A DNA stretch of 64,000 nucleotides from the IMG/VR virus record IMGVR_UViG_3300037466_001520; one strand, 5' to 3'. Position numbers and translations under genes: made by a program. Positions 13,787 to 37,149 of this stretch are shown here, piece after piece. This DNA comes from a virus (Duplodnaviria > Heunggongvirae > Uroviricota > Caudoviricetes). The notes under the pieces were generated by a model that was given only the letters and a program-made list of their open reading frames with translations, did no database searches and had not been told where the DNA came from. The stretch's first letter is position 1. Each line of letters begins with the position of its first letter.

Positions 13787-13812
13787 GAACCGGACATTCT
13801 GTCCGGTTTTTC
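13787..13812 (+). terminator. intrinsic terminator CCGGACA-ttc-TGTCCGG-TTTTTCT
   Basis: Ends the tRNA cluster. Confidence 0.6.
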
Positions 13813-13826
13813 TGCATATAGGGGGT

Positions 13827-14035
13827 GTCCGATGCCTAAGTCCCGATCCGAACTCATCAACCTCGCCTACGAGTCGACGAAACGGCGACTCGTCAAGGAC
13901 GGCACGGACCCCATGATCGCCTCCTTGCAGGCAAAGATCCACGTTGCAAAACTGTATAATCTGAATAGCTTCCTCGACGTGAACACCCACATCAACGCGG
14001 CCCGTCGAGCAGGACGGTCGACGGACAAGGCTTAG
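13827..14035 (+). CDS. hypothetical protein (69 aa)
   Basis: ATG after RBS AGGGGG; follows terminator 13787-13812. Confidence 0.5.
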
Positions 14036-14137
14036 GACGGTGACCGAGATCACTCAGGTGGGAGGCCTCTGGCCGCTTTGACCACGGAGTTTTGTCGGAA
14101 CAGACGTGTGGGACGCGAGTGGTCGAACCTGCGAAAC

Positions 14138-14165
14138 CCCTGCTCAGCAGGGGCTTTTGCATGTC
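14138..14165 (+). terminator. intrinsic terminator CCCCTGCT-cagc-AGGGGC-TTTTG
   Basis: Upstream of the endolysin promoter motif. Confidence 0.55.
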
Positions 14166-14253
14166 CAAGGTATTTTCCTCAAACAGTTTGAAACATTTGC
14201 CCCTGCCTGCCCAACTAGACTTGAAGGTGTATATCTCTAGTTTGAGGTGAGCT

Positions 14254-16326: not shown

Positions 16327-16423
16327 GGATTCACGGCGGGCGCGGATTCGACAGATTCGCGCCCGCTGTCTATCCTTGACGGATTGCCGGAGGGTCCGGC
16401 TCCGACCCAACGTAAGGCAGATT

Positions 16424-17146
16424 ATGACGGTAAAAGAAAATGTAACTACGTTTGGGGCTGCGGCTGGAATCTTCCTCTCCATGCTCAACGTCCCCGCCAC
16501 CATCGACACACCAGCCAAGCCGGTAACTCCTCCGGTGTCCATTGAGCAGGCCACGCCGATCTCTGCTCCGACCAACGCCGTTGTCCAGTTCGAGACAGCG
16601 TCGATCTCTTCGACCCCCGCTCCAGTAGCTCCGGTGGCCGAGCCTCAGTCCGACGAAACGACGACCCCTGAGTCTGCGCCCATCGAATCTCCCGTAGTCA
16701 AGCCCGTGGCTCCGGTTGCTAAGAAGACGACCCCGACGATTGTTCCCGCTGCTGCGACAGCAAACGTGCCCGCAACCACGCAGGCTCCGGCAGCTCCGGT
16801 CATCGGCTCGGTCTCTGGGCTAGGTTCGAGGATCGCCTCGGCAGCGCTCGCGCAGCTCGGCGTCGATCAGGACTGCACGATGCTCGTCACCAACTCGCTC
16901 GCGGCAGTGGGGATCCACTTCCACGGCTGGCCCGCAGGCTACCTCTCGCTCGGTCGCACCGTCCCGGCGTCTCAAGCCCAGCCCGGAGACCTCGTGTACT
17001 ACCAGAACGGCGGGATGGGCCTCGCGCACATCGCGGTCTACATCGGCAATGGTCAGGCCGTGCACGGAGGCTGGAACGGATTCACCACGGCGATTGCCTC
17101 GGTAAACATCGGATCAGGGCCAGTCTTCATCCGAGTTGGCGGATAA
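16424..17146 (+). CDS. NlpC/P60-family peptidase with N-terminal TM/signal anchor and Pro/Ala-rich linker
   Basis: C-terminal Cys...His...His pattern (DCTMLV ... AHIAVYIGNGQAVHGG); alternative start 16376. Confidence 0.65.
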   Translation: MTVKENVTTFGAAAGIFLSMLNVPATIDTPAKPVTPPVSIEQATPISAPTNAVVQFETASISSTPAPVAPVAEPQSDETTTPESAPIESPVVKPVAPVAKKTTPTIVPAAATANVPATTQAPAAPVIGSVSGLGSRIASAALAQLGVDQDCTMLVTNSLAAVGIHFHGWPAGYLSLGRTVPASQAQPGDLVYYQNGGMGLAHIAVYIGNGQAVHGGWNGFTTAIASVNIGSGPVFIRVGG

Positions 17147-17164
17147 GGCTACACTTGGTATAAT
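17136..17164 (+). promoter_or_regulatory. promoter TTGGCG-N17-TGgTATAAT (extended -10) followed by a structured leader
   Basis: Perfect extended -10; 10-bp perfect hairpin at 17185-17214. Confidence 0.55.
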
Positions 17165-17287
17165 AGATCGGTAGTTGATTTACCGGAGGGGCTCTGTTGG
17201 CGCGGAGCCCCTCCACCTTGGCAGTAGGACAGGGTCCAACCAGCTCTCATAAGGCCGGTCGCCGGGATCGTTACCCGGTTCTGCTAC

Positions 17288-17641
17288 GTGCTTATCCTAG
17301 AACCAGTCATGGACACGGACGATGACCCGCTCCTCTTCCTCGCGCTGGACTTCGATCTGGAAGATCTGAAAGTCCCCTGCTTCCAAGCGGAAGCCCACGA
17401 CGATCCGTCGAACGAGATTCACACCGGACCGTCCCACGCAGAGTACTACGTCCGCTTCGAGTGTCAGCACTGTGACACTGGAGGCCACGTTGTGCCTGCC
17501 TGCTCATCGTGGACCCTCTTCCTGACCGAGCTGATGCTCGACCGGCAGTACGGATGGCCCCACGACCCCGGGTGCCAAGGATTCAACCCATACGCGGACT
17601 CGATCACCATCGAGCCGATGAGCCCGAACTCCCATCTGTAA
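17288..17641 (+). CDS. hypothetical Cys/His-rich protein
   Basis: 117-aa ORF (alternative start ATG 17309); follows a structured leader. Confidence 0.45.
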   Translation: MLILEPVMDTDDDPLLFLALDFDLEDLKVPCFQAEAHDDPSNEIHTGPSHAEYYVRFECQHCDTGGHVVPACSSWTLFLTELMLDRQYGWPHDPGCQGFNPYADSITIEPMSPNSHL

Positions 17642-17659
17642 ACTGTATATCGTAGGAAA

Positions 17660-18355
17660 ATGAATCCTCTACTCACCGTCCCGCTCCTCGCACTCGATAC
17701 CGAGACGACCGGCGTCAACTCCTTCGAGGACCGCGTGGTCACGTGCTGCATGGTCTACGACAACGGTCAGGGAGACCAGCAGATCCGCAACTGGGTCATC
17801 GACCCGGGCATAGAGATTCCCGAGGGCGCGTCAGCGGTCCACGGAGTCACGACGGAGATCGCGCGAGCGACCGGCACCAGCCCCGTAGACGGCCTCGCGA
17901 GCATCGCGGCTAGTCTGATGCCCATGCTCGATGCCAAGATCCCTCTCGTTATATATAATGCCGCCTTCGACCTCACGCTGCTCAACAACGAGTTCGCTCG
18001 CCACGGGATCAACTTCCCATACGACTTCGACGAGCACATCGTCATCGACCCGTACGTCATCGACAAGGCCTTCAACCCGTACCGCAAGGGCAAGCGCATT
18101 CTGACGATGACCGCCTCGCTTTACGGTTACGAGCTGATCAACGCGCACAACGCGGAGGCCGACTGCCTCGCGGCCATCGGAGCATTCCGTGGGATGACAA
18201 CGGCCTATGACATCCAGTATTCTCTGGAGGAGCTTCACCAAAAACAGAAGATCTGGAAGTATCAGCAGGCCGAGGGTCTTGAGCAGCATTTCCGGAAGAC
18301 CGATCCGGAGAAGTGCGTCAACCGCGAGTGGCCGTACCAGACGGTTCCGGGATGA
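17660..18355 (+). CDS. DnaQ-like 3'-5' exonuclease (DEDD family)
   Basis: ALDTETTG Exo I motif, HNAEADC Exo III motif. Confidence 0.75.
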   Translation: MNPLLTVPLLALDTETTGVNSFEDRVVTCCMVYDNGQGDQQIRNWVIDPGIEIPEGASAVHGVTTEIARATGTSPVDGLASIAASLMPMLDAKIPLVIYNAAFDLTLLNNEFARHGINFPYDFDEHIVIDPYVIDKAFNPYRKGKRILTMTASLYGYELINAHNAEADCLAAIGAFRGMTTAYDIQYSLEELHQKQKIWKYQQAEGLEQHFRKTDPEKCVNREWPYQTVPG

Positions 18356-18392
18356 TTTGACACTGTTCCAAAGTGTGGTACACTAGATATAT

Positions 18393-18467
18393 CGCAGGGT
18401 AGAGGAGTTCGGAGTCCTCGCTGGCCTCATAAGCCAGAGATCGCAGGTTCAAATCCTGCCCCAGCAA
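18393..18467 (+). tRNA. tRNA-Met (CAT), initiator-like C1-A72 mismatch
   Basis: Anticodon stem-loop CTGGC-CTCATAA-GCCAG; T-arm GCAGG-TTCAAAT-CCTGC; acceptor CGCAGGG/CCCAGCA with C1·A72 and A4·A69 mismatches. Confidence 0.5.
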
Positions 18468-18539
18468 CGTTGTGCTCGTCAGGTACCGTGTGTGGTCGAG
18501 CCAAGCCGAGGTAACTTCTCGGCGACAAAACCTGAGCAT

Positions 18540-18610
18540 TCCCTCATAGCTCAAAGGCAGAGCGACCGGCTGTTAACCGGCAGATCGAGGTTCGAATCCT
18601 TGTGGGGGAG
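18540..18610 (+). tRNA. tRNA-Asn (GTT)
   Basis: D-arm GCTCAAAGGCAGAGC; anticodon loop CTGTTAA; T-loop TTCGAAT. Confidence 0.7.
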
Positions 18611-18667
18611 CTGGACGGGTAGTCCTCTGGCGTCAATGCTTCGGCAGGCGCTAAGCGCCGTTCTATT

Positions 18668-18739
18668 GGGGCCGCATGTACCAAGGTGGCGACGGATCCT
18701 TGCAAGATCTGTGGGCGCGTTCGATTCGCGTCGGCTCCA
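18668..18739 (+). tRNA. tRNA-Ala (TGC), G3-U70 present, non-canonical D-arm
   Basis: Acceptor GGGGCCG/CGGCTCC (G3·U70); anticodon stem-loop GGATC-CTTGCAA-GATCT; T-arm GCGCG-TTCGATT-CGCGT; D region TGTACCAAGGTGGCG lacks a clean stem. Confidence 0.55.
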
Positions 18740-18825
18740 CGCAATTTAATGCCGCGAGGCCGTTAAACATCCCAACAGTGTAGTGAACCAGCCACTCGGT
18801 CCGGTTGAACCGTAATCAACCTCAA

Positions 18826-18897
18826 GGGGCCACATGTACCAAGGTGGCGAAGATCCTCGGCAGGGATCTTGGGTGGATTCGATTTCCACTGGCTCCA
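18826..18897 (+). tRNA. tRNA-Ala (GGC), G3-U70 present, non-canonical D-arm, C33
   Basis: Acceptor GGGGCCA/TGGCTCC; anticodon stem-loop GATCC-TCGGCAG-GGATC; T-arm GTGGA-TTCGATT-TCCAC. Confidence 0.5.
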
Positions 18898-18993
18898 CGT
18901 GTGTTTGAGATTAACCGCACTGACGACTGTGACTCTTCGGTGCGGCTGTATTCTCGTTCCGGATTCGTCACAGCAGACCGGGCGCACACGCAA

Positions 18994-19066
18994 GGCCCTG
19001 TAGAGCAGCGGAGTGCTCGCCACCCTGTCACGGTGGAGGTCGGCGGTTCGAATCCGCTCAGGGTCG
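18994..19066 (+). tRNA. tRNA-Asp (GTC)
   Basis: D-arm GAGC-AGCGGAGT-GCTC; anticodon stem-loop CCACC-CTGTCAC-GGTGG; T-loop TTCGAAT. Confidence 0.75.
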
Positions 19067-19251
19067 CTCGGGAAAATCACAGCCTCGGGAAGTCCAGTGG
19101 TCAGCATAAACTGGGTGGACCGGTGTGAGGATATCGGGAAGTTAACTTAAGTGAGCGGTTCGTGCTGAGAGCCGCCGAATTAGGTCCGGAACGGGGTTAG
19201 GCTCCCGTCCACCCCGAACCGTTTGAAAGTATATATGGTATACTTTCTCTT

Positions 19252-19329
19252 GGTGGGTATAGCTCAGCAGGTTAGAGCGCCGGTTTGTGGCACCGGAGGT
19301 CGCGGGTTCAAATCCCGTTACTCACCCCA
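19252..19329 (+). tRNA. tRNA-His (GTG) with G-1 and encoded CCA
   Basis: Extra 5' G; acceptor GTGGGTA/TACTCAC; discriminator C; anticodon loop TTGTGGC; T-loop TTCAAAT. Confidence 0.75.
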
Positions 19330-19338
19330 AGGAGCTTC

Positions 19339-19959
19339 ATGGACGTCATCAACGCTGGCATCATCTCTGCCTCAAGCATCGCGGCATCGACAACTATCGC
19401 TGCACCCCTTTCTTCGCCGCTAATCGGGACCACTCTGGATCTCGACGGCTTCCGCCACGGGCCATGGGGTCCACCTCAGCAGGGTCACCCCCAGTTCATC
19501 CGCACGCTCTGGGCACCGTACGACAACGTCCACGAGGCCCTCGTATCACTCGTCAACTCGGCCCGTCGTTCCCTCGTGATCGCCATGTTCGGCTTCACCG
19601 ACCGCGAGCTGGCAGCAGCCGTCAAGCGCAAGTTGGACGATCCCAACATCTTCGTCCAGATCACCCTCGATTCCCGTCAAGCGGCAGGCCCTACGGAGAA
19701 GAAGATGCTCGACGAGTTCGGCCTCCTCGACTCGAACCGCGTGGTCGTCGGAAACTCGGAGCACGGCGACATCATGCACAGAAAGATCATGATCATCGAC
19801 GGAGTCTGGCGCATCTCGGGGTCGACCAACTGGTCCCTCGCCGGGGAGCAGAAGCAGGACAACGAGCTTACCGTGATCTACGACGCCATCATGGCGGCTG
19901 AGGCTCGCGCGGTCGTCGACCTTGAGCACAACAAGGCCCTCACCAAGGCCGGTCGCTGA
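19339..19959 (+). CDS. PLD-like (single HKD motif) nuclease
   Basis: HRKIMIIDGVWRISGSTNWS HKD motif; RBS AAGGAG overlaps the 3' CCA of tRNA-His. Confidence 0.7.
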   Translation: MDVINAGIISASSIAASTTIAAPLSSPLIGTTLDLDGFRHGPWGPPQQGHPQFIRTLWAPYDNVHEALVSLVNSARRSLVIAMFGFTDRELAAAVKRKLDDPNIFVQITLDSRQAAGPTEKKMLDEFGLLDSNRVVVGNSEHGDIMHRKIMIIDGVWRISGSTNWSLAGEQKQDNELTVIYDAIMAAEARAVVDLEHNKALTKAGR

Positions 19960-20002
19960 CACCTCGTTTGACACTGGATATCATTTAGATTAGACTGGGC
20001 GA

Positions 20003-20398
20003 ATGGCCCAGTCATACATTCATGCCGAGGCGAGCGCCCGCCACTTCAAGGCTGGCACGCCCGAGGACTACCTGCCGATCCACGAGTGGATCGACCAGTT
20101 CAAGAAGTCCTTCGGTGACGTCCGGCACCGAGCCATGCTGCACAACACCCACGGCCCTTGGATGGCACAGGACGTCTTCGGCCCTTTCATTGAAGTGTTC
20201 GATGAAAAGAACCAGAAGACCAAGAAAGTCCTCGTCCGAGAGATCGCGGAGAACCACATCATCGAAGACCTCGGATGCCTTCCGTCGCCCGAGAAGTGGC
20301 TCGACTGCATGGACTGCAAGGTCTGGATGGGCGGCAAGCGCAACAAGTTCATCGGTCGGGAAGAGTTCCTCGACCAAACCGTGATCAAAGGACAATAG
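20003..20398 (+). CDS. hypothetical protein
   Basis: 131-aa ORF. Confidence 0.5.
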   Translation: MAQSYIHAEASARHFKAGTPEDYLPIHEWIDQFKKSFGDVRHRAMLHNTHGPWMAQDVFGPFIEVFDEKNQKTKKVLVREIAENHIIEDLGCLPSPEKWLDCMDCKVWMGGKRNKFIGREEFLDQTVIKGQ

Positions 20399-20403
20399 AC
20401 ACA

Positions 20404-20865
20404 GTGACAGATTTCCTCGGCGTTCCCGTTACCGGCGAGCCGTCCCGCTTCACCTCGGCTCGCGTCAAGCAGGACGACCCGGCAAAGCTCCTCGAAGCCA
20501 TCAACCGCGTCCTCGACCACCCGCTCGTCCTCTCCCTCAAGTGGACGCAGTACACCCCGTATTTCAATGACGGGGACGCCTGCGAGTTCGGCCTTCACCG
20601 CGAGCCAGCGGTCTCCATCGAAGGCGGAGACGAGGACGAGGGCGACTACGAGGACGGCTTCTACTCGGCGTGGGACCTCGACGGCCACTACTACGAGGGC
20701 CTCAAGAAGCTCGAACTCGGCGACCTCTACGACCGCCTCCGCGCTGCGACCGATGAGCTGTATTCAGGTCGCCACTACGACATCCTCGCCGAGAAGTTCG
20801 GCGATCCGGCTGAGGTCGTGGCGACCAAAGAAGGCTTTCACATCGAGTTCTACGACCACGAGTAG
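20404..20865 (+). CDS. hypothetical acidic protein
   Basis: GTG after AAAGGA RBS, in frame with track ORF 20275; the track's earlier start would overlap the upstream gene by 124 nt. Confidence 0.5.
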   Translation: MTDFLGVPVTGEPSRFTSARVKQDDPAKLLEAINRVLDHPLVLSLKWTQYTPYFNDGDACEFGLHREPAVSIEGGDEDEGDYEDGFYSAWDLDGHYYEGLKKLELGDLYDRLRAATDELYSGRHYDILAEKFGDPAEVVATKEGFHIEFYDHE

Positions 20866-20883
20866 TCCCACCCACTAGAACGG

Positions 20884-20912
20884 CCCGGAGAAATCCGGGC
20901 CGTTTCTGTTTG
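20884..20912 (+). terminator. intrinsic terminator GGCCCGGA-gaaa-TCCGGGCC-GTTTCTGTTT
   Basis: After ORF 20404-20865. Confidence 0.55.
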
Positions 20913-20914
20913 AC

Positions 20915-20943
20915 ACTTCATTGGACGCTGTGTATCGTAGGAT
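20915..20943 (+). promoter_or_regulatory. promoter TTGACA-N17-TATCGT upstream of the GHKL ATPase gene
   Basis: Follows terminator 20884-20912. Confidence 0.5.
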
Positions 20944-20973
20944 CAGAAGCACGAACCGACGAAAGGAAAAACG

Positions 20974-23142
20974 ATGATCATCGAAGCCGAGACCACCGAA
21001 GTAGTCACAAACATCCCTGAGGGCCGGACGAAGCCCATGTTCATCAGCCAAGAGGGTCTGGCGCACATCATGTCGACGCTGACCAACCTCTACCACGACC
21101 CGGAGCTGGCTGTCATCCGCGAGATCACCGCCAACGCCATCGACTCGCACATCGCCTCAGGCCAGACCCGCAAGATCGAGATCTCGCTCCCAGACCGGTA
21201 CACGAACCAGTTCATCGTCGAAGACTGGGGAGTCGGCATGTCCTACGAGGATCTGGACAACCTCTGCCGGGGCTACGGCGAGTCCACCAAGCGCAAGCGG
21301 AACGACCAGATCGGCGCGTTCGGCCTCGGCTTCAAGTCCCCGCTCGCCATCGCGAACTCCTTCACCGTGCGCGGCATCAAGGACGGACGCCTCACGACTG
21401 TCATCATCGCGAAGTCCGCTGACGGCCTCAACAACGTCACCACTGTCGCCAAACAGGACACCGACCTGCCCAACGGCGTCAAGGTCTCCATCCCGGTCCC
21501 CGCCGACAAGCGCATCAGCTTCAACGAGAAGGCCAAGCGATTCTTCCGCTTCTCCGAGCCCAGCCTGCTCTCCGTCGACGGCGTGGAGCCGACGAGCGTC
21601 TACACCTCGGCCCGCAAGGTGACCGACCCCGACAACCCGGACTTCGTCGCATACATCGGCGACGAGACCATGAACGAGTCCGTCGTGGTCATGGGCGGTG
21701 TGCCCTACGCGATGACCTACTCCGAGATGTGCGATTCTCTGGAGCGTCAGGGCCTCACGGCTGGGTCCGCCTTCTACCGGCTCCCCAAGATCTTCCCTAT
21801 CGGCATCGGCGAGGTCGAGCTGACCCCGAACCGCGAGGGGCTCCGCTACACGGACAAGACCATCGAAGTTGTGGACCGCCTGCTCGCCGGATTCCTCCGG
21901 GGCTACACCAAGTCCGCTCAGGAGGCCATCGACGCCATCGACGAGCGCTCGGAGGTCTACGACGAGATCCGCACGTGGGCCGAGAAGCTCGACATCCCGG
22001 CCAAGGACATCCAGTGGCGCGGCGAGGACGTCGTGCGCGAGATCCGTCTGGAGAAGCCCGTCGCGACCGTCCGCCCCAATGTCGGGTGGACGTCCCGCAA
22101 CGAGCACGCGACCCGCTACTCCATCGAACTCGACCGCAAGATCCCGGTCCTGATCATCACCGGGCGCGGCACCGACAAGTACCGCCGAGTCGCCACCTAC
22201 ATCAACGACTACATGGCGCTCAAGAACCACCGCTACCGCGATCTGACCTTCACCTTCGTCGAAGAGCTGACCGAGGAGATGAAGACCCCGTGGCTCATCG
22301 AGAACTCCAACTTCTCCTTCATCGACGCCGAGGCCTTCATGGCAGAGGTCAAGGAGTACCGCAAGTCTCTCAAGCCCGAGAAGGAACCGGCTGAGAAGAA
22401 GGAGCGGGTGAAGATCACCTACCCGGTCTTCGACATCGAGAACAACGCTCTCACCTACGCCGAGCCCAAGGACATCCCGGAGGACGCCTACCTCGTCCGA
22501 CCCGAGGACTTCACCTCGACGACCGCCGAGATCGTCCGGATCTTCGAGGCACCGAGCGGCTGGGGCAAGATGCTCAAGGAGGACCGCAAGGAGATCTGCG
22601 AGGCGTTCGCCGAGGCGATGCCGAACGTCAAGCACCTCGTCTTCCTCAGCTCCACGCGCAAGCTGGAGACGCTGGAGCGCAAGTCCAAGATGACCTTCCC
22701 GGCCCTCGCCGACCTCGCCCCGACGTTCCTCGACGAGATCGAGACAGCGATGGAGGACGCCGACCTCCACCACTACCGCTACTGCAAGAAGATGGCCGAG
22801 TACGACTTCTTCTACGGCCTCGCGGAGGAGGACGGCATCCTCGACCCGCAGTTTGCACAGCTCCGCGCGGACGAGTCCCTCGCACCCAAGGCAGAGCGGC
22901 TGGAGCGCTTCCTCAAGGCCTACAACACGCTTCGTCGTCCCGGAGACCGGTTTGCCCCGGACAACGCGGGACGCAAGCCGGAGTCCATCGAGTTCGACGA
23001 TGACGAGATCCGCAACAGGTACATCCTCATGCGGAGCATGGGCCTCCACAGCAGGAAGAACGACGCGACATTCCGGGAGCACCTGATCTCCTACATGAAC
23101 ACTGTGTACTCGTCGACCCTTGTCGAGTCCGAAGATAACTGA
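20974..23142 (+). CDS. GHKL-superfamily ATPase (HSP90/MutL/TopoVI-like Bergerat fold)
   Basis: N box REITANAIDS, G1 box VEDWGVGMS, G2 box GAFGLGFKS; 722 aa; RBS AAAGGAAAAACG. Confidence 0.7.
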   Translation: MIIEAETTEVVTNIPEGRTKPMFISQEGLAHIMSTLTNLYHDPELAVIREITANAIDSHIASGQTRKIEISLPDRYTNQFIVEDWGVGMSYEDLDNLCRGYGESTKRKRNDQIGAFGLGFKSPLAIANSFTVRGIKDGRLTTVIIAKSADGLNNVTTVAKQDTDLPNGVKVSIPVPADKRISFNEKAKRFFRFSEPSLLSVDGVEPTSVYTSARKVTDPDNPDFVAYIGDETMNESVVVMGGVPYAMTYSEMCDSLERQGLTAGSAFYRLPKIFPIGIGEVELTPNREGLRYTDKTIEVVDRLLAGFLRGYTKSAQEAIDAIDERSEVYDEIRTWAEKLDIPAKDIQWRGEDVVREIRLEKPVATVRPNVGWTSRNEHATRYSIELDRKIPVLIITGRGTDKYRRVATYINDYMALKNHRYRDLTFTFVEELTEEMKTPWLIENSNFSFIDAEAFMAEVKEYRKSLKPEKEPAEKKERVKITYPVFDIENNALTYAEPKDIPEDAYLVRPEDFTSTTAEIVRIFEAPSGWGKMLKEDRKEICEAFAEAMPNVKHLVFLSSTRKLETLERKSKMTFPALADLAPTFLDEIETAMEDADLHHYRYCKKMAEYDFFYGLAEEDGILDPQFAQLRADESLAPKAERLERFLKAYNTLRRPGDRFAPDNAGRKPESIEFDDDEIRNRYILMRSMGLHSRKNDATFREHLISYMNTVYSSTLVESEDN

Positions 23143-23182
23143 TACAGTTTCAAGAACCAACACCAGACAGGAGAAAACCACT

Positions 23183-24328
23183 ATGACCATGTACCACTCG
23201 ATCATCGGGCGGACTCCGGGACGCACGCTCTCCGTCACCTATTCTGACGGAGACATCGCGACGGTCCCGGAGAGCCACGAATCCTTCGAACAGCTCCTCA
23301 ACCTCATCAACTCCGGCGCGGAGGAGGACGAGGTCCGCAACCTCATCGACATCATCCTCGGCGCAGGGAAGCGCCTGACCCAGCTCTCCGAGCGCGTGTC
23401 CTTCAAGGGCCGCACGCTGTTCTTCGACGGCGACCCCATCGACGGCGCGCTCGTGGATACGATCATCGAACTGGTCGCTGCGGGCACGGACGACGAGAAG
23501 CTCCACTCCGTCGTGAACTTCCTTGAGAAGGTCAAGACGAACCCGAACATCACGACCATCGACGGCCTCTACAAGTGGATCACCAACGGCGACCTCGTCA
23601 TCCACCCAGACGGAGACTTCATCGCCTACAAGGGTTGCCAAGGAAAGGGTGACCAGCGTACGTCGCAGTCCTTCGGCACGGCATTCGTCGACGGCGAGGA
23701 GATCACCGGCTACATCCCCAACCCGGATGGCGCTGTCGTCTCCATGCCTCGCTCAACCGTCGACGACGGCAGCTACAACATGTGCTCGACGGGCCTCCAC
23801 ATCGCCACCCACGGCTTCGCGCAAGGCTTCGCCCACGGCGAGGTCATCCTCGTCAAGGTCAACCCTCGCGACGTCGTCTCGGTTCCATCCGACGAGAGCT
23901 TCAAGAAGCTGCGCGTGTGCCGCTACAAGGTGCTGCACGCCGTTGCCGGTCGCCTCGACGGTCGCGTCTACGTTCAGCCCGAGCTGGAGCCGGAGACAGA
24001 GGACCAGACCCCTGAGGAGTTCAAAGCAGCAGCCGAGGAGGTCATCGACGAGGAGACGTGGAACGCGGCTCACGACGCTGTCGGAGACACACCGTTCACC
24101 GTCACCCCGGCTGACGAGGACAATGACGAGGAGATCGCCGAGATCGAGGATCTGCTCAAGCCGGTCCACGAGTACGGCACGGTTGACGCTGAGGAGCCCG
24201 AGAAGGCCCCTGAGGAGCCACAGGAGCCTCTCAGGGAGTCTAACGGGCGCTTCACGAAGGCTGGTGCTGCCCATGAGGCGAAAGCCGCTCTGAGGGACGC
24301 TCTGGGGCGTTTCATCAAGAACAAGTAA
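23183..24328 (+). CDS. hypothetical protein (381 aa, acidic C-terminus), GHKL-ATPase partner
   Basis: ATG after AGGAGAAAA; the track start 23120 would overlap the upstream gene. Confidence 0.55.
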   Translation: MTMYHSIIGRTPGRTLSVTYSDGDIATVPESHESFEQLLNLINSGAEEDEVRNLIDIILGAGKRLTQLSERVSFKGRTLFFDGDPIDGALVDTIIELVAAGTDDEKLHSVVNFLEKVKTNPNITTIDGLYKWITNGDLVIHPDGDFIAYKGCQGKGDQRTSQSFGTAFVDGEEITGYIPNPDGAVVSMPRSTVDDGSYNMCSTGLHIATHGFAQGFAHGEVILVKVNPRDVVSVPSDESFKKLRVCRYKVLHAVAGRLDGRVYVQPELEPETEDQTPEEFKAAAEEVIDEETWNAAHDAVGDTPFTVTPADEDNDEEIAEIEDLLKPVHEYGTVDAEEPEKAPEEPQEPLRESNGRFTKAGAAHEAKAALRDALGRFIKNK

Positions 24329-24369
24329 ACAAACGTGTATACTGGTCTGGCGGGAAACCGCCAGATCTA

Positions 24370-24442
24370 GTCTCCATAGCTCAACGGATAGAGCAGGGCT
24401 TTCCTAAAGCCAAGGTTCCGGGTTCGAATCCCGGTGGGGGCA
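24370..24442 (+). tRNA. tRNA-Arg (CCT)
   Basis: D-arm GCTCAACGGATAGAGC; anticodon loop TTCCTAA; T-arm CCGGG-TTCGAAT-CCCGG. Confidence 0.65.
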
Positions 24443-24608
24443 CGTGGTCCGAAACGGCAGGATACCCAAGAACTCGGGTCACCGGACTGGCCGTGTTGGG
24501 TCCGAACTCCCTTAGTGGGCCGAGTCGCCACATCTACCTCAGGAGGTGAAGTATGGACGCATTCGAGAACAGGTAAGCGGAAGTACCGCTTAGCTGAGGA
24601 GAATAACC

Positions 24609-24983
24609 ATGTCCCGTACCTACAAAGACCGACCCTTCTGGGTCAAGCGTAACGACCGCTCACGTCCCGGACGAGAACGCCACTTCCACGGCGAGTGGGT
24701 TCACCCTTGGAAGAAGGATCCGCACCAGAGCGGGCCTTGCACCATGGGCGAAGAAGTAACTCGCGACAACGTCCACGACATCCTCTGCTACTGGGAGCCC
24801 TTTGATCTTCACTCGGGCTGCTCATGCAACGGCTGGATGGCCGGGAACGAAGGCCCGCGACGTTCCGAAGAGCGCGATGTTTTGCAGCAGTACAAAAAGG
24901 AGCACAACTCGGGAGAGGATGAACTTTCTTTCGAGGATGACGTGTTCTCGACCAACAAGCGACACGATGAGAACTGGTGGTAA
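24609..24983 (+). CDS. hypothetical protein
   Basis: RBS GAGGAG; preceded by a 7-codon uORF (24552-24575, MDAFENR) with perfect RBS and a hairpin. Confidence 0.5.
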   Translation: MSRTYKDRPFWVKRNDRSRPGRERHFHGEWVHPWKKDPHQSGPCTMGEEVTRDNVHDILCYWEPFDLHSGCSCNGWMAGNEGPRRSEERDVLQQYKKEHNSGEDELSFEDDVFSTNKRHDENWW

Positions 24984-25051
24984 CGCCGCCGAGTTGAAAT
25001 CAAAGAATACGCAGTGTAGAATAAGACCCGAAGCACTATCGGGTCTTTTCT

Positions 25052-25474
25052 ATGCCTCCTCGAAACCGTGCAGGTGATGTCTGCGCTGCCTGCCCTGAGC
25101 CAGTAAAGTTGGCTGGAGCAAAATACTGTTCCAATACCTGTCAAATGCAGTACCAGCGTGACCGCTACATCGAGAGATGGTTGGCCGGTGAGATCTCTGG
25201 GAACAGCTCCAAGTTCGACGTACCGGGGCAGATTCGTGCGTGGATCTACTCCAGATACGGGATGATGTGTTGGGAGTGTGGTTGGAGCAAGCCTCATCCG
25301 GATACCGGCATACCTCCGCTACAAGTGGACCACATCGACGGTGATGCAAAGAACAATAGACCCGAGAACCTTCGGCTCCTCTGTGGGAGCTGCCACTCAC
25401 TTACCCCTACTTACGGGAATCGGGGTGGTAGAGTTAGCTCTAGAACACATAGGTATGCTAAAATAGACAAGTAG
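25052..25474 (+). CDS. HNH endonuclease
   Basis: VDHIDGDAKNNRPENLRLLCGSCHS HNH motif. Confidence 0.7.
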   Translation: MPPRNRAGDVCAACPEPVKLAGAKYCSNTCQMQYQRDRYIERWLAGEISGNSSKFDVPGQIRAWIYSRYGMMCWECGWSKPHPDTGIPPLQVDHIDGDAKNNRPENLRLLCGSCHSLTPTYGNRGGRVSSRTHRYAKIDK

Positions 25475-25479
25475 CCAAC

Positions 25480-25555
25480 GCCTGCATAGCTCAGTCGGTA
25501 GAGTGTCACTATGGTAAAGTGAAGGTCCCGGGTTCGAATCCCGGTGTAGGCTCCA
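25480..25555 (+). tRNA. tRNA-Thr (GGT), CCA encoded
   Basis: D-arm GCTCAGTCGGTAGAGT; anticodon stem-loop TCACT-ATGGTAA-AGTGA; T-arm CCGGG-TTCGAAT-CCCGG. Confidence 0.75.
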
Positions 25556-25556
25556 T

Positions 25557-25630
25557 GACCCTATGGCCGAATGGTTAGGCAGCAGCCTGCAAAGCTGTGT
25601 ATACCGGTTCGAATCCGGTTAGGGTCTCCA
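25557..25630 (+). tRNA. tRNA-Cys (GCA), CCA encoded
   Basis: Acceptor GACCCTA/TAGGGTC perfect; anticodon loop CTGCAAA; T-loop TTCGAAT. Confidence 0.7.
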
Positions 25631-32499: not shown

Positions 32500-32540
32500 C
32501 CCTCTGAGGAGGCGGGTCTTCGGACCCGCCTTTTCTTTTG
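32500..32540 (+). terminator. intrinsic terminator GGCGGGTC-ttcg-GACCCGCC-TTTTCTTTTG
   Basis: After the SPFH gene. Confidence 0.6.
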
Positions 32541-32585: not shown

Positions 32586-33017
32586 ATGTCCACCGAGACC
32601 TACCTCTACTTCTCCGATCCGACTGACCTTGACTGGATCCGCGAGCAGCTCTCCCTACGCCTCCGCAGCACGTCCAGCTCTGACGACTGCTTCTTCGACG
32701 ACCGCGTCACCGTCTGGCTGGAGCACGGCAACGGAGACTACCTCGTCGAGGAGGATGTCTGGTCGACCGAAGGTCCGTACCTCGACGAGACCGCCTGCTG
32801 GGCTAGGCTCCGCATCTTCGCCTACAACTCTCCGGGGGCTTCCGAAGCCAGCAACGCGCTTCTGCCCATTATGTGGTTCGCGGACTCCCTCGACTTCTTG
32901 GGCAAGGGGTTCCGCTGGTTCGACCCGTTCAGCATGAACACCAACGAGGGGCTCGACTTCCTAGACATCATCCGCTACCACGAGGACGCCGAGTGGAAGG
33001 CCACGCAGGGCGTTTGA
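32586..33017 (+). CDS. hypothetical protein
   Basis: 143-aa ORF. Confidence 0.5.
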   Translation: MSTETYLYFSDPTDLDWIREQLSLRLRSTSSSDDCFFDDRVTVWLEHGNGDYLVEEDVWSTEGPYLDETACWARLRIFAYNSPGASEASNALLPIMWFADSLDFLGKGFRWFDPFSMNTNEGLDFLDIIRYHEDAEWKATQGV

Positions 33018-33049
33018 CAACTGTAGATCTTTACTCTTAGGATAGACAC

Positions 33050-34003
33050 ATGACAACGACATTCGACGAAAACACAAGGACAAAACAACTGGTCCTCCTC
33101 CGAGGACTCCCCGGTTCCGGCAAGTCGACCTTCGCCCGAGCTTGGGTGGACGAGGACCCCGACTTCCGCGTTCGCGTGAACCGCGACGACATCCGCTTCG
33201 CGCTCTTCGGCAAGTACTGGGACCTCTCCCAGCATCAGGAAGAGACGGTCTCGACCATCGAGCACGCGACCTCCACGGCTGCGCTCAAGTCCGGTCTCTC
33301 CGTCATCATCGACGCGACCAACTTCAAGGCCTCGGGCAACAAGGACTGGATCTCGGCAGCGGACCGGCACAAGGCCGAGTTCGTGGTCGTCGACATCGAG
33401 ACGCCGGTCGAGGAGTGCATCCGACGAGACCGGGAGCGTATCTCCCGTCAGGTCGGCGAGCAGGTCATCCGCGACTTCGCCAAGCGCTACCTCCAGAAGG
33501 GCAAGTTCCCGCCAAAGCCTGTGAAGATGGAGCAGAAGATCGCAGAGGTGGGCGCTCCCTACGAGCACACCGAGGGACTGCCCTTCGTCTGGCTCTTCGA
33601 CGTCGACGGCACACTTGCCCGGATGCAGGGCCGCTCACCGTTCGCATGGCACCGCGTCGGCGAGGACACCGTGATCGAGGACGTCGCCCGCGTGGCGCGC
33701 ATCCTCTCGGAGACGTACCCGATCATCATCTTCTCGGGGCGCGACGAGGTGTGCAAGCCCGAAACGTCCGATTGGCTGCGCGAGGTGGCGAACGTGGACT
33801 TCAAGGAGATCCACATGCGCCCCACCTCGACGAACGGGGTCGACCTTCCTGACGACGTCGTGAAGCTGGATCTGTTCGAGCAGCACATCCGAGGCAAGTA
33901 CAACGTCGCCGGAGTGTTCGACGACCGCCTGCGTGTGTGCCGCGCTTGGGAGAACCTCGGCCTGACGCTGTTCCGAGTCGGACCGCTCGACTCGGCCTTC
34001 TAG
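33050..34003 (+). CDS. polynucleotide kinase-phosphatase (T4 Pnkp-like)
   Basis: P-loop LLRGLPGSGKST (kinase) plus HAD phosphatase motif VWLFDVDGTLA. Confidence 0.75.
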   Translation: MTTTFDENTRTKQLVLLRGLPGSGKSTFARAWVDEDPDFRVRVNRDDIRFALFGKYWDLSQHQEETVSTIEHATSTAALKSGLSVIIDATNFKASGNKDWISAADRHKAEFVVVDIETPVEECIRRDRERISRQVGEQVIRDFAKRYLQKGKFPPKPVKMEQKIAEVGAPYEHTEGLPFVWLFDVDGTLARMQGRSPFAWHRVGEDTVIEDVARVARILSETYPIIIFSGRDEVCKPETSDWLREVANVDFKEIHMRPTSTNGVDLPDDVVKLDLFEQHIRGKYNVAGVFDDRLRVCRAWENLGLTLFRVGPLDSAF

Positions 34004-34005
34004 TG

Positions 34006-34036
34006 TAAGCCCCGGGCGAAACCCCGGGGCTTACGC
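34006..34036 (+). terminator. hairpin GTAAGCCCCGGG-cgaaa-CCCCGGGGCTTAC
   Basis: After the Pnkp gene. Confidence 0.45.
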
Positions 34037-34088
34037 TTCACCTCGACACTTTCAAAGATATAATGAGTCAACACCCTAGGAGGCTCTC

Positions 34089-34364
34089 ATGACCACTGCC
34101 ACGCTCGCTCCTCAGCTTCCCTGCGAGATCGTCGACTTCGACGTCGAGGGAACGGAGCCCGTCAAGCTCGACACGACGTTCCGCTGCGACCGATGCCCTG
34201 CGCAGGCGTACGTGCTCGTCACCCTCACCTCCGGGGGCCAGCTCACATTCTGCATGCACCACGCCAACCAGCACCGCGAGGCGCTCCTGCCGATCTCCTC
34301 GGAGTGGTACTCGGAGACCTCGCGCCTGTTCAACGAGAACAAGAAGAAAGGATCGGAGAACTGA
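34089..34364 (+). CDS. hypothetical zinc-finger protein
   Basis: CxxC ... CxH pattern (FRCDRCPAQ ... FCMHHANQH). Confidence 0.5.
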   Translation: MTTATLAPQLPCEIVDFDVEGTEPVKLDTTFRCDRCPAQAYVLVTLTSGGQLTFCMHHANQHREALLPISSEWYSETSRLFNENKKKGSEN

Positions 34365-35095
34365 TGACGACTCTGTCTACTCACGACGTCCGAGCCTACC
34401 TCGTCGGAGGCGCGGTGCGCGATAGGATCCGGGGGATTCCTTCTCACGACTGGGACTTCGCGGTCGAGGCTCGGGACTACGACCACATGGACCGCTGGAT
34501 CCAAGACCTCGGGTTCCGCGTGTTCGTGCGGACCCCGAAGACCTTCACCATCCGCGCCCGCTGCGAGGACTCCGTCAGCTTCGCCGGGATCCAGATGGAG
34601 CACCAGACGTACGACTTCGTCCTCTGCCGCAAGGACGGCGTCTACACAGACGGTCGCCGACCCGACTCGGTCACGGCTGGGACTCTCTACGACGACCTCG
34701 CGCGCCGGGACTTCACGTGCAACGCCATCGCCCTCGCAGAGGACGGGACGTACGTCGACCCGCACAATGGGCAGAAGGCCATCGAGGAGAAGGTTCTTCG
34801 GCTCGTGGGTGGCCGCGAGCGGCTCGTCGAGGACGGCCTAAGGGTGATCCGCGCGCTGCGCTTCTACGTGACCACCGGGTTCACCTTCGACGCCAAGCTG
34901 AGGGTTGCTCTTCGCTCCGACGAGGCGGCGGAGGCGCTGAGCAAGGTCTCTGCGAACCGCATCCGCGACGAGCTGAACAAGATGCTCAAGCACAGCCTGT
35001 TCGATTCCATCGACGTGCTCGCGGAGTTCCCCGACGTCATCGAGATCATCGAGGACAAGGGCGTCTGGCTCAAGGCCACGAGCGAAACGCGCTGA
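34364..35095 (+). CDS. tRNA nucleotidyltransferase (CCA-adding enzyme) / poly(A) polymerase head domain
   Basis: YLVGGAVRDRIRG ... DWDFAV head-domain motif; TGATG overlap with upstream gene. Confidence 0.7.
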   Translation: MTTLSTHDVRAYLVGGAVRDRIRGIPSHDWDFAVEARDYDHMDRWIQDLGFRVFVRTPKTFTIRARCEDSVSFAGIQMEHQTYDFVLCRKDGVYTDGRRPDSVTAGTLYDDLARRDFTCNAIALAEDGTYVDPHNGQKAIEEKVLRLVGGRERLVEDGLRVIRALRFYVTTGFTFDAKLRVALRSDEAAEALSKVSANRIRDELNKMLKHSLFDSIDVLAEFPDVIEIIEDKGVWLKATSETR

Positions 35096-35160
35096 CATTG
35101 GACACTGCGTAAGGTAGAATGTAGGTAGGGCTGATGCCCGCCTAGAGTAAGTGAATAGCG

Positions 35161-36441
35161 ATGACCACTACTTTCGTTCTTGACTCCAGCGTTCTGCTCT
35201 CCGCTGGGAAGAAGGCACTGTATTCGTTCGGTGAGAATGACGTGGTCATTCCATTCACCGTGGTCAAGGAGATCGAGTCCAAGAGGAGCGATCCCGAGAC
35301 CGGCTACCCCGCACGTTCCGTGCTGCGAGCCCTCGACGAGATGAACGACGCCGGAGACCTCAAGGTCGGCGTCCCCCTCGGCGAGGGCTTCGGCACGCTC
35401 AGGGTCGAGGCCAACCACATCGGCGAGACCCCCGACCTCCTGCGCAGCTACCCATCGAACGACACCCGCATCGCGACGGTCGCCTTCAATCTCAAGCTCG
35501 ACGACCCGAACGTCGTGCTCGTCACCAAGGATCTCACGCTCCGCATCGTCGCATCGCTCGTCGACGTCCCGACTCAGGGCTTCGGCGTTGGTGACTTCTC
35601 CACCGAGCACATCGACAAGGTCGAGACCGCGTGGATCGACTCCGAGGTCATCGACCAGATCCACGGCACCGGAGGTGCTCGCCTCAACCTCGACGTTCCG
35701 CTGAACGTGCCGCTGGAGCTTCGCTCGTTCACCGAGCCGAAGAAGACCGCCCTAGTGCTCGCCCAGAAGGAGTACATCTTCCGCAAGGTCGAGGCCCCGA
35801 AGATCTCCGGGCTTGAGTCCCACAGCCGCGAGCAGGCCTTCGCCATCGACTACCTCACGGACGAGGACGTGCAGATCGTCTCTCTCGGAGGCCGCGCCGG
35901 AACCGGCAAGACCACACTGGCCCTCGCAGCAGGCGTCGAGCAGCTCGACAAGCCCTTCAAGAAGATCATCGTCTTCCGCTCCATGCACTCGGTCGGAGGC
36001 GAGGAGCTGGGCTTCCTCCCGGGCACCGAGCAGGAGAAGCTGGACCCGTGGACCAAGGCCATCTTCGACTCACTGGAGAGCTTCCTGACCAAGGGCCAGA
36101 TCGACAAGCTCAAGCGCGAGCAGCGCATCGAAGTCCTGCCGATCACGCACGTTCGCGGACGCACCTTCTCGAACGCCTTCATCGTCATCGACGAGGCCCA
36201 GAACCTCGAACGCGCCACCATCATGACGCTCCTGTCCCGTCTCGGACACAACTCCAAGGCCGTGCTATCGTGGGACGTCTCGCAGCGCGACAACTTCCGC
36301 GTGGGCCGCTTCGACGGCATCTATGAGGTCGTCCGCCGACTCCTCGGCGAAGAGCTGTTCGGGCACGTCTCGCTGCACAAGTCGGAGCGCTCCGCAGTGG
36401 CCGAGCTGGTGTCGCGAAAGCTGGACGACTTCGACAACTGA
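35161..36441 (+). CDS. PIN-domain / PhoH-like ATPase (YlaK-like)
   Basis: N-terminal PIN (FVLDSSVLL ... D); Walker A GRAGTGKTT; VIDEAQN. Confidence 0.8.
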   Translation: MTTTFVLDSSVLLSAGKKALYSFGENDVVIPFTVVKEIESKRSDPETGYPARSVLRALDEMNDAGDLKVGVPLGEGFGTLRVEANHIGETPDLLRSYPSNDTRIATVAFNLKLDDPNVVLVTKDLTLRIVASLVDVPTQGFGVGDFSTEHIDKVETAWIDSEVIDQIHGTGGARLNLDVPLNVPLELRSFTEPKKTALVLAQKEYIFRKVEAPKISGLESHSREQAFAIDYLTDEDVQIVSLGGRAGTGKTTLALAAGVEQLDKPFKKIIVFRSMHSVGGEELGFLPGTEQEKLDPWTKAIFDSLESFLTKGQIDKLKREQRIEVLPITHVRGRTFSNAFIVIDEAQNLERATIMTLLSRLGHNSKAVLSWDVSQRDNFRVGRFDGIYEVVRRLLGEELFGHVSLHKSERSAVAELVSRKLDDFDN

Positions 36442-36477
36442 TTTGTCCGACCCGGGACCCAGTGTTAGCATACACAC

Positions 36478-37149
36478 ATGCAAAACGTCATCCTTCGGGC
36501 CATCACTGGGTCCCGGGCCTACGGGCTGAACCACGCCGACTCCGGCACCGACCGGATGGGTATCTTCGTCGCGCCGACGCTCGACGTCGCTGGCCTCAAC
36601 TGGAGCCAGCACAGGGAGACTTGGTCGAACGCCAGCCCAGACGGGGACGACACTACCTACCATGAGATCGGCAAGTATCTCCGGCTCGTGCTCAAGGGCA
36701 ATCCGACGCTGATCGAGCTGCTCTTCATGAACGAGTACGAGATCCTCGACGAGACCGGGATGGACATCCTGAGCCTGCGCGAGTCAATCGTCTCCGAGAC
36801 GAACATTCGCCCGTCCTACTACGGCTACGCCGCTGCCCAGCTCCGCGAGTTCCAGAACCGCCCCAACCCCAAAGACAAGATGCCCCGGCACTGCCTCCGC
36901 ATCGCGCGTCAGGCCGTCGAGCTGCTGGAGACAGGGACGACGAACGTCCGCGTCTCGGACCCCGAGGAGTACTTCGACCTGACCGAGCTGCCGAAGTACA
37001 GGATCGTCGAGATCCTCGGCGAGGAGGTCGAGAAGATCAAGACCGTCCACACCTCACTACGCCACGAGCCGGACAGGGAGCGGGTCGTCGAGTTCCTCGA
37101 TGCCGTACGGTTCCTCAACACGAAGAACCCCTACGCCTTGACAGTGTAG
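36478..37149 (+). CDS. Pol-beta-superfamily nucleotidyltransferase
   Basis: TGSRAYGLNHADSGTDRMGIF = GS-x9-DxDxD NTase signature. Confidence 0.55.
   Translation: MQNVILRAITGSRAYGLNHADSGTDRMGIFVAPTLDVAGLNWSQHRETWSNASPDGDDTTYHEIGKYLRLVLKGNPTLIELLFMNEYEILDETGMDILSLRESIVSETNIRPSYYGYAAAQLREFQNRPNPKDKMPRHCLRIARQAVELLETGTTNVRVSDPEEYFDLTELPKYRIVEILGEEVEKIKTVHTSLRHEPDRERVVEFLDAVRFLNTKNPYALTV

Follow-up and report, generated by a model that had tools for sequence, protein, structure and literature searches.

An RNA-end processing and repair neighborhood of a Mimi-like phage genome, with a break-sealing branch that may be decaying

Genes at the locus

The 64,000-nucleotide stretch analyzed here, which we call the window, belongs to a Caudoviricetes virus recorded in IMG/VR as IMGVR_UViG_3300037466_001520. 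Between positions 33050 and 37149 it carries genes for a polynucleotide kinase-phosphatase (Pnkp), a CCA-adding enzyme, a PIN-PhoH fusion protein (PhoH2), and a nucleotidyltransferase of the RlaP family, with a small DUF7455 protein among them. This cluster is the RNA-end processing and repair neighborhood of Mimi-like actinophages, a module of an already known kind: it is annotated in cultured relatives and has been described for large phages, and its presence here is not new. Two departures from the relatives are the subject of this report. The RNA ligase Rnl1 that the relatives carry beside Pnkp was not found in the 90.4 of 153.4 kb covered, and RlaP has a glycine in place of its first catalytic aspartate. 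The features of the cluster and its upstream boundary are as follows.

31574-32497, Band-7 gene, upstream of the terminator-like hairpin, which is followed by the orphan reading frame and then Pnkp
32506..32535, + strand, intrinsic-terminator-like hairpin of 13 pairs with a T-run, 3' of the Band-7 gene; upstream boundary of the cluster
32586..33017, + strand, orphan reading frame, 143 amino acids (aa), acidic, in the place that Rnl1 (plus a small reading frame) takes in relatives
33014..33043, + strand, sigma-70-like promoter, TTGACA-N18-TAGGAT, ending 6 nucleotides (nt) 5' of the Pnkp ATG
33050..34003, + strand, Pnkp gene, 317 aa
34005..34034, + strand, perfect GC-rich hairpin directly 3' of the Pnkp stop, GTAAGCCCCGGG-CGAAAC-CCCGGGGCTTAC
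34037..34064, + strand, sigma-70-like promoter for the DUF7455-CCA pair, TTCACC-N16-TATAAT
34089..34364, + strand, DUF7455 small protein, 91 aa
34364..35095, + strand, CCA-adding enzyme gene, 243 aa
35092..35120, + strand, sigma-70-like promoter for the PhoH2-RlaP pair, CTGACA-N17-TAGAAT
35161..36441, + strand, PhoH2 gene, 426 aa
36478..37149, + strand, RlaP gene, 223 aa

The four larger open reading frames (ORFs), all on the + strand with a G+C content at third codon positions (GC3) of 0.80-0.90, are real genes, and Pfam and PHROGs agree with the domains that an earlier note on this DNA had given them. That note had listed the four as consecutive genes. The order holds, but the fifth gene, DUF7455 at 34089-34364, had been overlooked, and the genes form three separately promoted units (Pnkp, DUF7455-CCA, and PhoH2-RlaP), the promoters being consensus matches only. 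We rejected a single operon on the promoter-like sites before 33050, 34089, and 35161 and on the hairpin after Pnkp, which is likely a transcript end or stabilizer. Between 28000 and 41500 (13.5 kb), 8 sigma-70-like sites are observed, compared with 1.4 expected. Because the promoter-like site before Pnkp ends 6 nt before its ATG, the Pnkp mRNA is probably leaderless. The orphan ORF at 32586..33017 has no match in Pfam, PHROG, NCBIfam, or PADLOC and evolves fast, with 46% identity to its counterpart in the related locus L017 and a ratio of nonsynonymous to synonymous substitution rates (dN/dS) of 0.71. We also considered the cluster as a defense-system homolog and rejected this, since PADLOC gave no match save weak P-loop ones for PhoH2.

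Source genome, relatives, and scope of the searches

The phage genome is 153,443 bp long (JGI metagenome contig Ga0395901_0000058); the window spans ~63.2-127.2 kb of it, with the Pnkp gene at ~96.2 kb. A second sample yielded a contig of exactly this length with another start point and orientation, which makes a complete, circularly permuted genome probable. Over the cluster, three more assemblies show 100% identity, and independent JGI and Logan gene calls give identical coordinates for the four larger ORFs. No near-identical DNA was present among 50,697 phage records, and the phage is uncultured. Its host is probably a high-GC Gram-positive bacterium, an actinobacterium: the window has a GC content of ~61% and includes a WhiB gene, and the nearest cultured relatives are the Arthrobacter phages Mimi, Racecar, Talia1610, and Atuin (GenBank MN234211, MN234206, PQ559666, and OK040794, respectively), with 42-65% protein identity. 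The genomes of these four phages are ~193 kb each, compared with 153 kb here.

We gathered relatives by an IMG/VR search anchored on the CCA enzyme and with locally built hidden Markov models (HMMs). The window and two loci, L017 and L020, form a tight sub-clade with 70-89% identity. Ten independent relatives outside it, comprising seven dereplicated IMG/VR groups, a 157-kb ENA contig (L019), Mimi, and Atuin, are 42-65% identical to the window. The readable sequence amounts to 90.4 of 153.4 kb, namely, the window with 9.7 kb upstream and 16.7 kb downstream; scans for ligase families covered window ORFs of at least 150 aa and the called genes of the flanks.

Pnkp retains both catalytic domains

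Domain searches uphold the assignment of 33050-34003 to Pnkp. Pfam places an AAA_33 kinase domain at residues 14-147 (1.7e-24) and a HAD_PNKP domain at residues 180-311 (3.7e-36), and PHROGs agree; one polypeptide thus joins a P-loop 5'-kinase at its N terminus to a HAD (DxDxT) 3'-phosphatase at its C terminus. The P-loop GSGKST (22-27), NRDDIR (44-49), DVDGT (184-188), SGR (229-231), and DDR (291-293) are all present, and the catalytic motifs are kept in nine aligned relatives. The protein aligns over its full length with T4 Pnkp (1ltq, residues 2-297; phmmer 1.2e-26) and with a bacterial Pnkp1 (4xrp, 5.5e-36). It shares the domain order of the T4 enzyme and has equivalents of K15/S16, D35, R38, D165/D167, R176, R213, and D277/D278, although identity to T4 Pnkp is low and the best solved relative is Pnkp1 of the bacterial Pnkp1-Rnl-Hen1 system. 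Every T4 Pnkp catalytic residue is retained, and both the 5'-kinase and the 3'-phosphatase are predicted to be intact.

T4-family Pnkp enzymes act on DNA ends too, and the cluster lies between an Mre11-like exonuclease gene (26765-28228) on one side and DinG-helicase and primase genes on the other. Pnkp might accordingly ready 5'-OH/3'-phosphate DNA ends for sealing by a DNA ligase in the course of replication or recombination, with the RNA enzymes as unrelated passengers. We consider this highly improbable: the conserved partners in the ten relatives are all RNA enzymes (Rnl1, the CCA enzyme, PhoH2, and RlaP), no DNA ligase was found within the 90.4 kb, and RlaP does not act on DNA (PMC12776372).

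A short CCA-adding enzyme and its small partner

The earlier proposal of a tRNA nucleotidyltransferase at 34364-35095 is borne out by a PolyA_pol head (Pfam, 9.4e-21), a PolyA_pol_RNAbd match (2.9e-05), and the family motifs: motif A as GGAVRD (15-20) with DWD (29-31), motif B as RRD (114-116), and motif D as EDGLRVIRALRF (156-167), which corresponds to the EDxxRxxRxxRF template motif. All three motifs are invariant in six relatives. The protein consists of the head and neck only and lacks the body and tail typical of class II as well as an HD domain. Its alignment covers just residues 15-204 of the Bacillus enzyme (404 aa) and, in the 396-position profile NF009814, positions 14-206. This CCA-type profile scores 135 bits, below its cut-off of 290, and the poly(A) polymerase profile PcnB scores 69 bits. 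We assign the gene product as a short class-II tRNA nucleotidyltransferase, putatively of the CCA-adding type. Short forms are common in phages, with 349 of 451 matching phage records reaching at least 80% coverage and many IMG/VR ORFs of ~240-255 aa.

Escherichia coli Cca and Mycobacterium tuberculosis PcnA/Rv3907c have the head and neck motifs A, B, and D in common with the phage enzyme, which differs in having no C-terminal HD domain. In actinobacterial and E. coli CCA enzymes, the HD domain removes 2',3'-cyclic phosphate from tRNA ends, and cellular class-II enzymes couple nucleotide addition to a 2',3'-cyclic-phosphate/3'-phosphate phosphatase (PMC10673834). A phosphatase for the phage enzyme, if any, could be supplied in trans by the neighboring Pnkp. 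Most mycobacterial tRNA genes lack CCA, the host CCA enzyme is essential, and its overexpression neutralizes the nucleotidyltransferase toxin MenT3 (PMC11541572, PMC10673834).

The DUF7455 gene (Pfam, 2.8e-22) keeps this position in all relatives, and its stop and the CCA-enzyme start codon overlap by 1 nt (TGATG). Its product carries a CxxC ... CxHH motif and may be zinc-ribbon-like. A second DUF7455-like ORF lies at 60578-60928 (tblastn with Mimi gp183, 1.3e-06 at 60821-60901).

PhoH2 is an RNA helicase-nuclease homolog

The fusion of PIN and PhoH domains proposed for 35161-36441 is confirmed by PIN_4 (residues 5-139, 1.2e-17) and PhoH (residues 220-409, 8e-51) matches. The acidic PIN residues D8, E37, D101, and D124, Walker A (244-252, GRAGTGKTT), and Walker B (342-348, with IDEAQN) are invariant in seven sequences. 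The protein aligns end to end with NCBIfam NF053827, "RNA 5'-3' helicase PhoH2" (profile positions 2-425 of 427, 1.1e-118), at 397 bits, below the equivalog cut-off of 680. The phage protein thus resembles mycobacterial PhoH2, with its PIN acidic residues and Walker motifs intact. In mycobacteria, a small co-transcribed gene, PhoAT, lies upstream, whereas the phage PhoH2 has no PhoAT-like gene directly upstream and is preceded by the CCA enzyme with a promoter-like site of its own in between, and the small DUF7455 gene sits two genes upstream. PhoH2 enzymes are ATP-dependent RNA helicases coupled to a PIN RNase (PMC7390352). The earlier view of all four genes as handlers of RNA ends holds in that the cluster is homologous to a genuine RNA-repair set, linked to Rnl1 in ten relatives, but not for PhoH2, whose activity is not end healing.

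With 58-89% identity, PhoH2 is conserved more than any other gene of the cluster, and this documented RNase-helicase could serve a takeover or turnover of host RNA. It would unwind and cleave host or early phage RNAs, the nucleotides released would feed phage synthesis, Pnkp would open fragment ends to 5'-phosphate-dependent RNases and 3' exonucleases, and the nucleotidyltransferases would tail RNAs for decay. A precedent exists in T4, whose PNK acts independently of a ligase when it phosphorylates RegB-cut mRNAs, which host RNases then degrade (PMC3014915). The promoters of the cluster are host-type and early-looking, and two DEDD 3'-5' exonuclease homologs, one of the Rv2179c type, are encoded elsewhere in the window. 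PIN nucleases, on the other hand, leave 5'-phosphate/3'-OH ends, for which Pnkp is not needed. The 243-aa enzyme is also far closer to the CCA-adding than to the poly(A) polymerase profile and keeps the template motif, and the ancestral association with Rnl1 and RlaP favors repair over decay. We regard takeover as an unlikely function of the cluster.

Two GenBank entries labeled "RecA-like DNA recombinase," Mimi gp185 (L001 10174-11457) and Atuin gp179 (L013 11706-12998), are PIN-PhoH2 orthologs with 64-65% identity to the window PhoH2, and we flag this label as a recurrent error. Directly after PhoH2, Mimi gp186 (L001 11469-11699) has an Acb2/Tad1 hairpin domain (9.1e-20), an anti-CBASS/anti-Thoeris sponge fold, which suggests that the PhoH2 neighborhood in relatives collects counter-defense genes.

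Rnl1 is missing from a conserved gene order

In Mimi and Atuin, the neighborhood begins with an Mre11-like nuclease, a glycosyltransferase, DUF932, and (Band-7), runs on to Rnl1, a small ORF, Pnkp, DUF7455, the CCA enzyme, and PIN-PhoH2, and continues, after further genes, with RlaP, a small ORF, WhiB, DinG helicase, and primase. The window has the same backbone order, with amino acid identities to Mimi-type proteins of 43% for Pnkp, 47% for the CCA enzyme, 64% for PhoH2, and 54% for RlaP. Tail or membrane genes separate PhoH2 from RlaP in Mimi and Atuin, whereas RlaP directly follows PhoH2 in the window, as in the related locus L030. Mimi-type relatives carry Rnl1 just upstream of Pnkp, usually with a small ORF in between, and in some a block of two glycosyltransferases and a cytidylyltransferase precedes it; the window and L017 are without Rnl1 at this site.

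The ligase of the relatives belongs to Pfam RNA_lig_T4_1 (PF09511, 8.7e-15), the T4-Rnl1 type, and is present in 10/10 independent relatives, 1.2-3.7 kb upstream of the CCA gene. In L030 and L031, Rnl1, Pnkp, DUF7455, the CCA enzyme, PhoH2, and RlaP lie within ~6 kb, with one slot for a small uncharacterized ORF among them. RlaP neighborhoods that include an RNA ligase occur in Mimi, Atuin, L019, L023-L033, DatBoi, and A3Wally. The protein-database search with Rnl1 drew on the best 120 of 2617 matches, and the Rnl1-bearing L019 itself was not among these.

Between Band-7 and Pnkp, Rnl1 is absent from both the window and L017, and the L020 contig ends too early to tell. The earlier note had seen no RNA ligase in the window, and every search agrees: Mimi Rnl1 gave no tblastn match on the window, and no RNA ligase of any family was found among window ORFs of at least 150 aa. 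The same is true beyond the window, where the called flank genes bring the coverage to 90.4/153.4 kb without a ligase. An Rnl1 HMM detected no remnant in 90 kb (best E value 0.59; positive controls, 1e-13 to 1e-129). We examined two larger ORFs as hidden ligases and rejected both: the 402-aa ORF at 23120-24328 is rIIB-like, and the 386-aa ORF at 40055-41215 is primase-like.

RlaP has lost a catalytic aspartate

The gene at 36478-37149 had been described as a minimal nucleotidyltransferase with the motif GS-x9-DxDxD. That motif is absent. Residues 11-25 read GSRAYGLNHADSGTD, that is, GS-x8-D-S-G-T-D, and the protein is an RlaP (PF10127, 83.3 bits against a cut-off of 23; 2.9e-23) in which the family S-D-x-D reads S-G-T-D, its first catalytic Asp having become Gly. 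Position 23 is Asp in 119 of the 120 closest homologs (aligned; 50-100% identity), the Mimi-type relatives included, and Gly only in the window protein; apart from this position, the family motif G-S-x-A-Y-G-L ... S-D-x-D is invariant in the 120. Gly23 is also the sole deviation of the window RlaP among the 58 columns whose conservation reaches at least 95%, and its codon, GGC at 36544-36546, is one transition from GAC. With RlaP otherwise intact, the pattern points to a recent change.

RlaP enzymes have three strictly conserved catalytic aspartates, two of them in S-D-x-D and one further downstream (PMC12776372), and the window protein has D25 and D57/D58 but not the full set. Asp21 as a compensating residue was rejected, as it is also found in the Asp23-keeping relatives P0002, P0003, and P0006. 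An assembly error was likewise rejected: Gly23 recurs unchanged in four assemblies, two from JGI and two from Logan, which represent one strain (100% nucleotide identity). By general Pol-beta nucleotidyltransferase chemistry, an enzyme without its first metal-binding Asp is expected to be crippled or wholly inactive. Because this residue is replaced by Gly, the window RlaP is probably catalytically impaired or inactive.

An AlphaFold (AF2) model of the protein (predicted confidence, pLDDT, 91) has an N-terminal beta-sheet nucleotidyltransferase domain and a C-terminal helical domain. A sequence search of the PDB gave no match, and PADLOC gave none by sequence. By Foldseek, the nearest solved structure to the model (md4f9be212b45) is HalB of the Hailong system (E value 1.5e-05, TM score ~0.5, 15% identity), with kanamycin nucleotidyltransferase also a neighbor; among the HalB entries deposited is a double mutant, D21A/D23A, of the corresponding Asp pair.

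Characterized RlaP members add one or two nucleoside monophosphates to RNA 3'-OH ends, preferably on cleaved tRNA, and T4 encodes a member of the family, NrdC.11 (PMC12776372). RlaP is likewise a member of the RtcB-RlaP-RtcA operons of Pseudomonas (PMC12776372), from which the phage cluster differs in having neither RtcB nor RtcA and in its Asp-to-Gly change. Among jumbo phages, the distribution of RlaP mirrors that of RNA ligases (PMC7824862).

Outside the Mimi group, RlaP lies within 10 kb of the CCA-enzyme homolog in 13 of 58 dereplicated CCA-anchored IMG/VR loci (L056, L075-L080, L087, L092, L096, L097, and others) and within 1 kb in 7. A lineage-specific HMM found no Rnl1 in those 13 loci, and there may be a recurrent CCA-RlaP partnership.

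Phage tRNAs as likely substrates

The presumed substrates of the CCA enzyme are encoded to the left of the cluster.

6907..25630, + strand, 28 tRNA genes in islands

An encoded CCA is absent from 24 of the 28 genes, the four that have it being Val (13635-13709), His (19253-19329), Thr-ggt (25480-25555), and Cys (25557-25630). The phage tRNAs are likely the main substrates of the CCA enzyme. A C stands directly after the discriminator base in 28/28, which is far from chance at ~30% C; this universal C74 may steer 3' processing or leave only CA to add. The Rfam tRNA-Sec model also matches at 10519-10605 (51.4 bits; gathering threshold, 47), directly upstream of tRNA-Ser at 10611-10697. ARAGORN does not call this site, which may be a 29th tRNA with a long variable arm.

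Selection after ligase loss

Within the ligase-less sub-clade, dN/dS is 0.21-0.27 for the whole of Pnkp (0.20-0.30 for the kinase domain and 0.17-0.21 for the phosphatase domain), 0.27-0.39 for the CCA enzyme, 0.15-0.32 for PhoH2, and 0.24-0.36 for RlaP. All cluster genes are thus under purifying selection in the sub-clade, and Pnkp has accordingly remained of use since the loss of the adjacent ligase. The lineage amounts to a natural experiment in which Rnl1 was lost and one member then lost the catalytic residue of RlaP, while Pnkp, the CCA enzyme, and PhoH2 are still selected. The order of loss appears to have been Rnl1 first and the RlaP residue second, which fits the reported co-distribution of RlaP and ligases (PMC7824862). 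The pattern supports the proposed functional coupling of Rnl and RlaP and suggests ligase-independent jobs for phage Pnkp and CCA enzymes in tRNA 3'-end maturation or repair and in RNA turnover.

Function of the remaining module

We tentatively favor a module in partial decay, in which the break-sealing branch (Rnl1 and RlaP) has been lost or is decaying and Pnkp, the CCA enzyme, and PhoH2 are retained to mature and repair tRNA 3' ends and for RNA turnover. With no enzyme to seal them, anticodon-loop breaks would no longer be rejoined by the module. The CCA enzyme would complete the 3' ends of phage tRNAs and rebuild acceptor ends that had been trimmed or mis-extended. The Pnkp phosphatase would clear 3'-phosphate as well as 2',3'-cyclic-phosphate blocks to allow nucleotide addition, substituting in trans for the HD domain, and its kinase could turn 5'-OH fragments into 5'-phosphate substrates for host RNases, like T4 PNK after RegB. 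PhoH2 would unwind and cut RNA for turnover or processing rather than repair, and RlaP would be a recently inactivated leftover of the ligase branch. The fallback offered in the earlier note, that sealing may be unnecessary if only CCA ends and 3'-phosphates are repaired, thus becomes the favored reading. The note had left out a simpler role, that of maturing the phage tRNAs without an encoded CCA. Overall, the earlier observation is largely right, with one consequential sequence error in the RlaP motif, and its interpretation is partly supported.

Several points weigh against a decaying module. Inactivity of RlaP D23G is predicted from family conservation and general Pol-beta nucleotidyltransferase chemistry. 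L017 has no adjacent ligase, yet its RlaP is intact; loss of the ligase thus did not soon render RlaP dispensable. The kinase domain of Pnkp is as constrained as the phosphatase domain, which a pure 3'-end pathway would not need; this constraint fits ligation or 5'-phosphate-dependent decay. A relocated ligase, or one of another family (Rnl2, RtcB, etc.), may lie in the remaining 63 kb of the genome, and mycobacteriophages of clusters J, E, and L always have Pnk and an RNA ligase together, though unlinked (PMC3706429).

The last three of these points also speak for complete tRNA break repair of the T4 kind, in which Pnkp would heal anticodon-loop breaks made by ribotoxins, a ligase encoded elsewhere in the genome or a host 5'-phosphate ligase would seal them, and the CCA enzyme and RlaP would restore lost nucleotides, the cluster being merely rearranged. 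T4 uses Pnkp and Rnl1 in this way against the anticodon nuclease PrrC. The Mimi-type relatives couple the same genes to an Rnl1-family ligase, the window Pnkp has all its catalytic residues with both domains constrained, and the 28 tRNAs and a Ro/TROVE protein recall the repair sets of jumbo phages (PMC7824862). Yet the 90.4 kb without a ligase include the whole replication, nucleotide, and RNA-gene region, and the remaining part, which opens with tail genes, is probably structural for the most part. RlaP, which is associated with ligases, has lost its catalytic Asp, and the common bacterial RtcB cannot join the 3'-OH/5'-phosphate ends that Pnkp makes (discussed in PMC12776372). The cluster also has partners beyond the T4 pathway, namely, the CCA enzyme, PhoH2, and DUF7455. 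Complete repair, the main rival, is possible but, in our judgment, less likely.

The cluster has a counterpart in the RNA repair sets described for jumbo phages by Iyer, Anantharaman, Krishnan, Burroughs, and Aravind (2021, PMC7824862), which include the same components: tRNA arrays, RlaP, CCA enzyme, ROT/TROVE, and PIN-PhoH. Those sets also feature ATP-grasp RNA ligases with a polynucleotide kinase and a phosphoesterase. In that survey, RlaP and the kinase/phosphatase are congruent with ligases, whereas here both occur without a detectable one, and the 153-kb genome is below the usual jumbo cut-off.

Counter-defense against PrrC, RloC, VapC, or colicin-like toxins, as proposed in the earlier note, is a standard hypothesis for such modules (PMC7824862), and a role of this kind is plausible; breaks made by PIN nucleases of the VapC type would, however, not call for healing by Pnkp. 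One specific form, which we put forward as speculation with a low probability, is that the minimal CCA enzyme, its coupled DUF7455 protein, and Pnkp would constitute a self-sufficient, ligase-independent repair of acceptor ends against host toxins that hit tRNA 3' ends (such as MenT/AbiEii-type nucleotidyltransferases or acceptor-stem nucleases), with the Gly23 RlaP kept as a dead RNA-binding factor and not as a gene in decay. In a weaker variant, suggested by the fold similarity of the RlaP model to HalB, RlaP-like phage nucleotidyltransferases may interfere with Hailong-type nucleotide-polymer signaling.

Other features of the window

Several further genes lie between the tRNA islands. A Ro60/Rsr-like protein is encoded at 7398-8960 (TROVE, 7e-20, with vWA); at the gathering threshold, Rfam detects no Y RNA or YrlA in the window. 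An RNase_T/DEDD exonuclease is encoded at 17660-18355 (5.4e-10, with a weaker DNA_pol_A_exo1 match), and rIIA-like (HATPase_c_3) and rIIB-like (phrog_609, 1.1e-49) genes occupy 20974-24328. The Rv2179c-like 3'-5' exoribonuclease lies at ~52551-53027 (precomputed Pfam).

The motif TTGAC-N17/18-TA(G/T)n(A/C)T occurs eight times on the + strand of the window and zero times on the - strand, and may represent a phage early-promoter set for the host sigma-A polymerase. TTGAC-type positions include the following.

1205, 6790, 19968, 28253, 28288, 33014, 37138, and 48222, + strand, TTGAC-type motif

Two independent Logan assemblies (L103 and L104) stop at the same base, equivalent to ~80,678 in window coordinates and ~70 nt past a 101-aa gene. 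This shared stop may mark the boundary of a repeat or the physical end of the genome.

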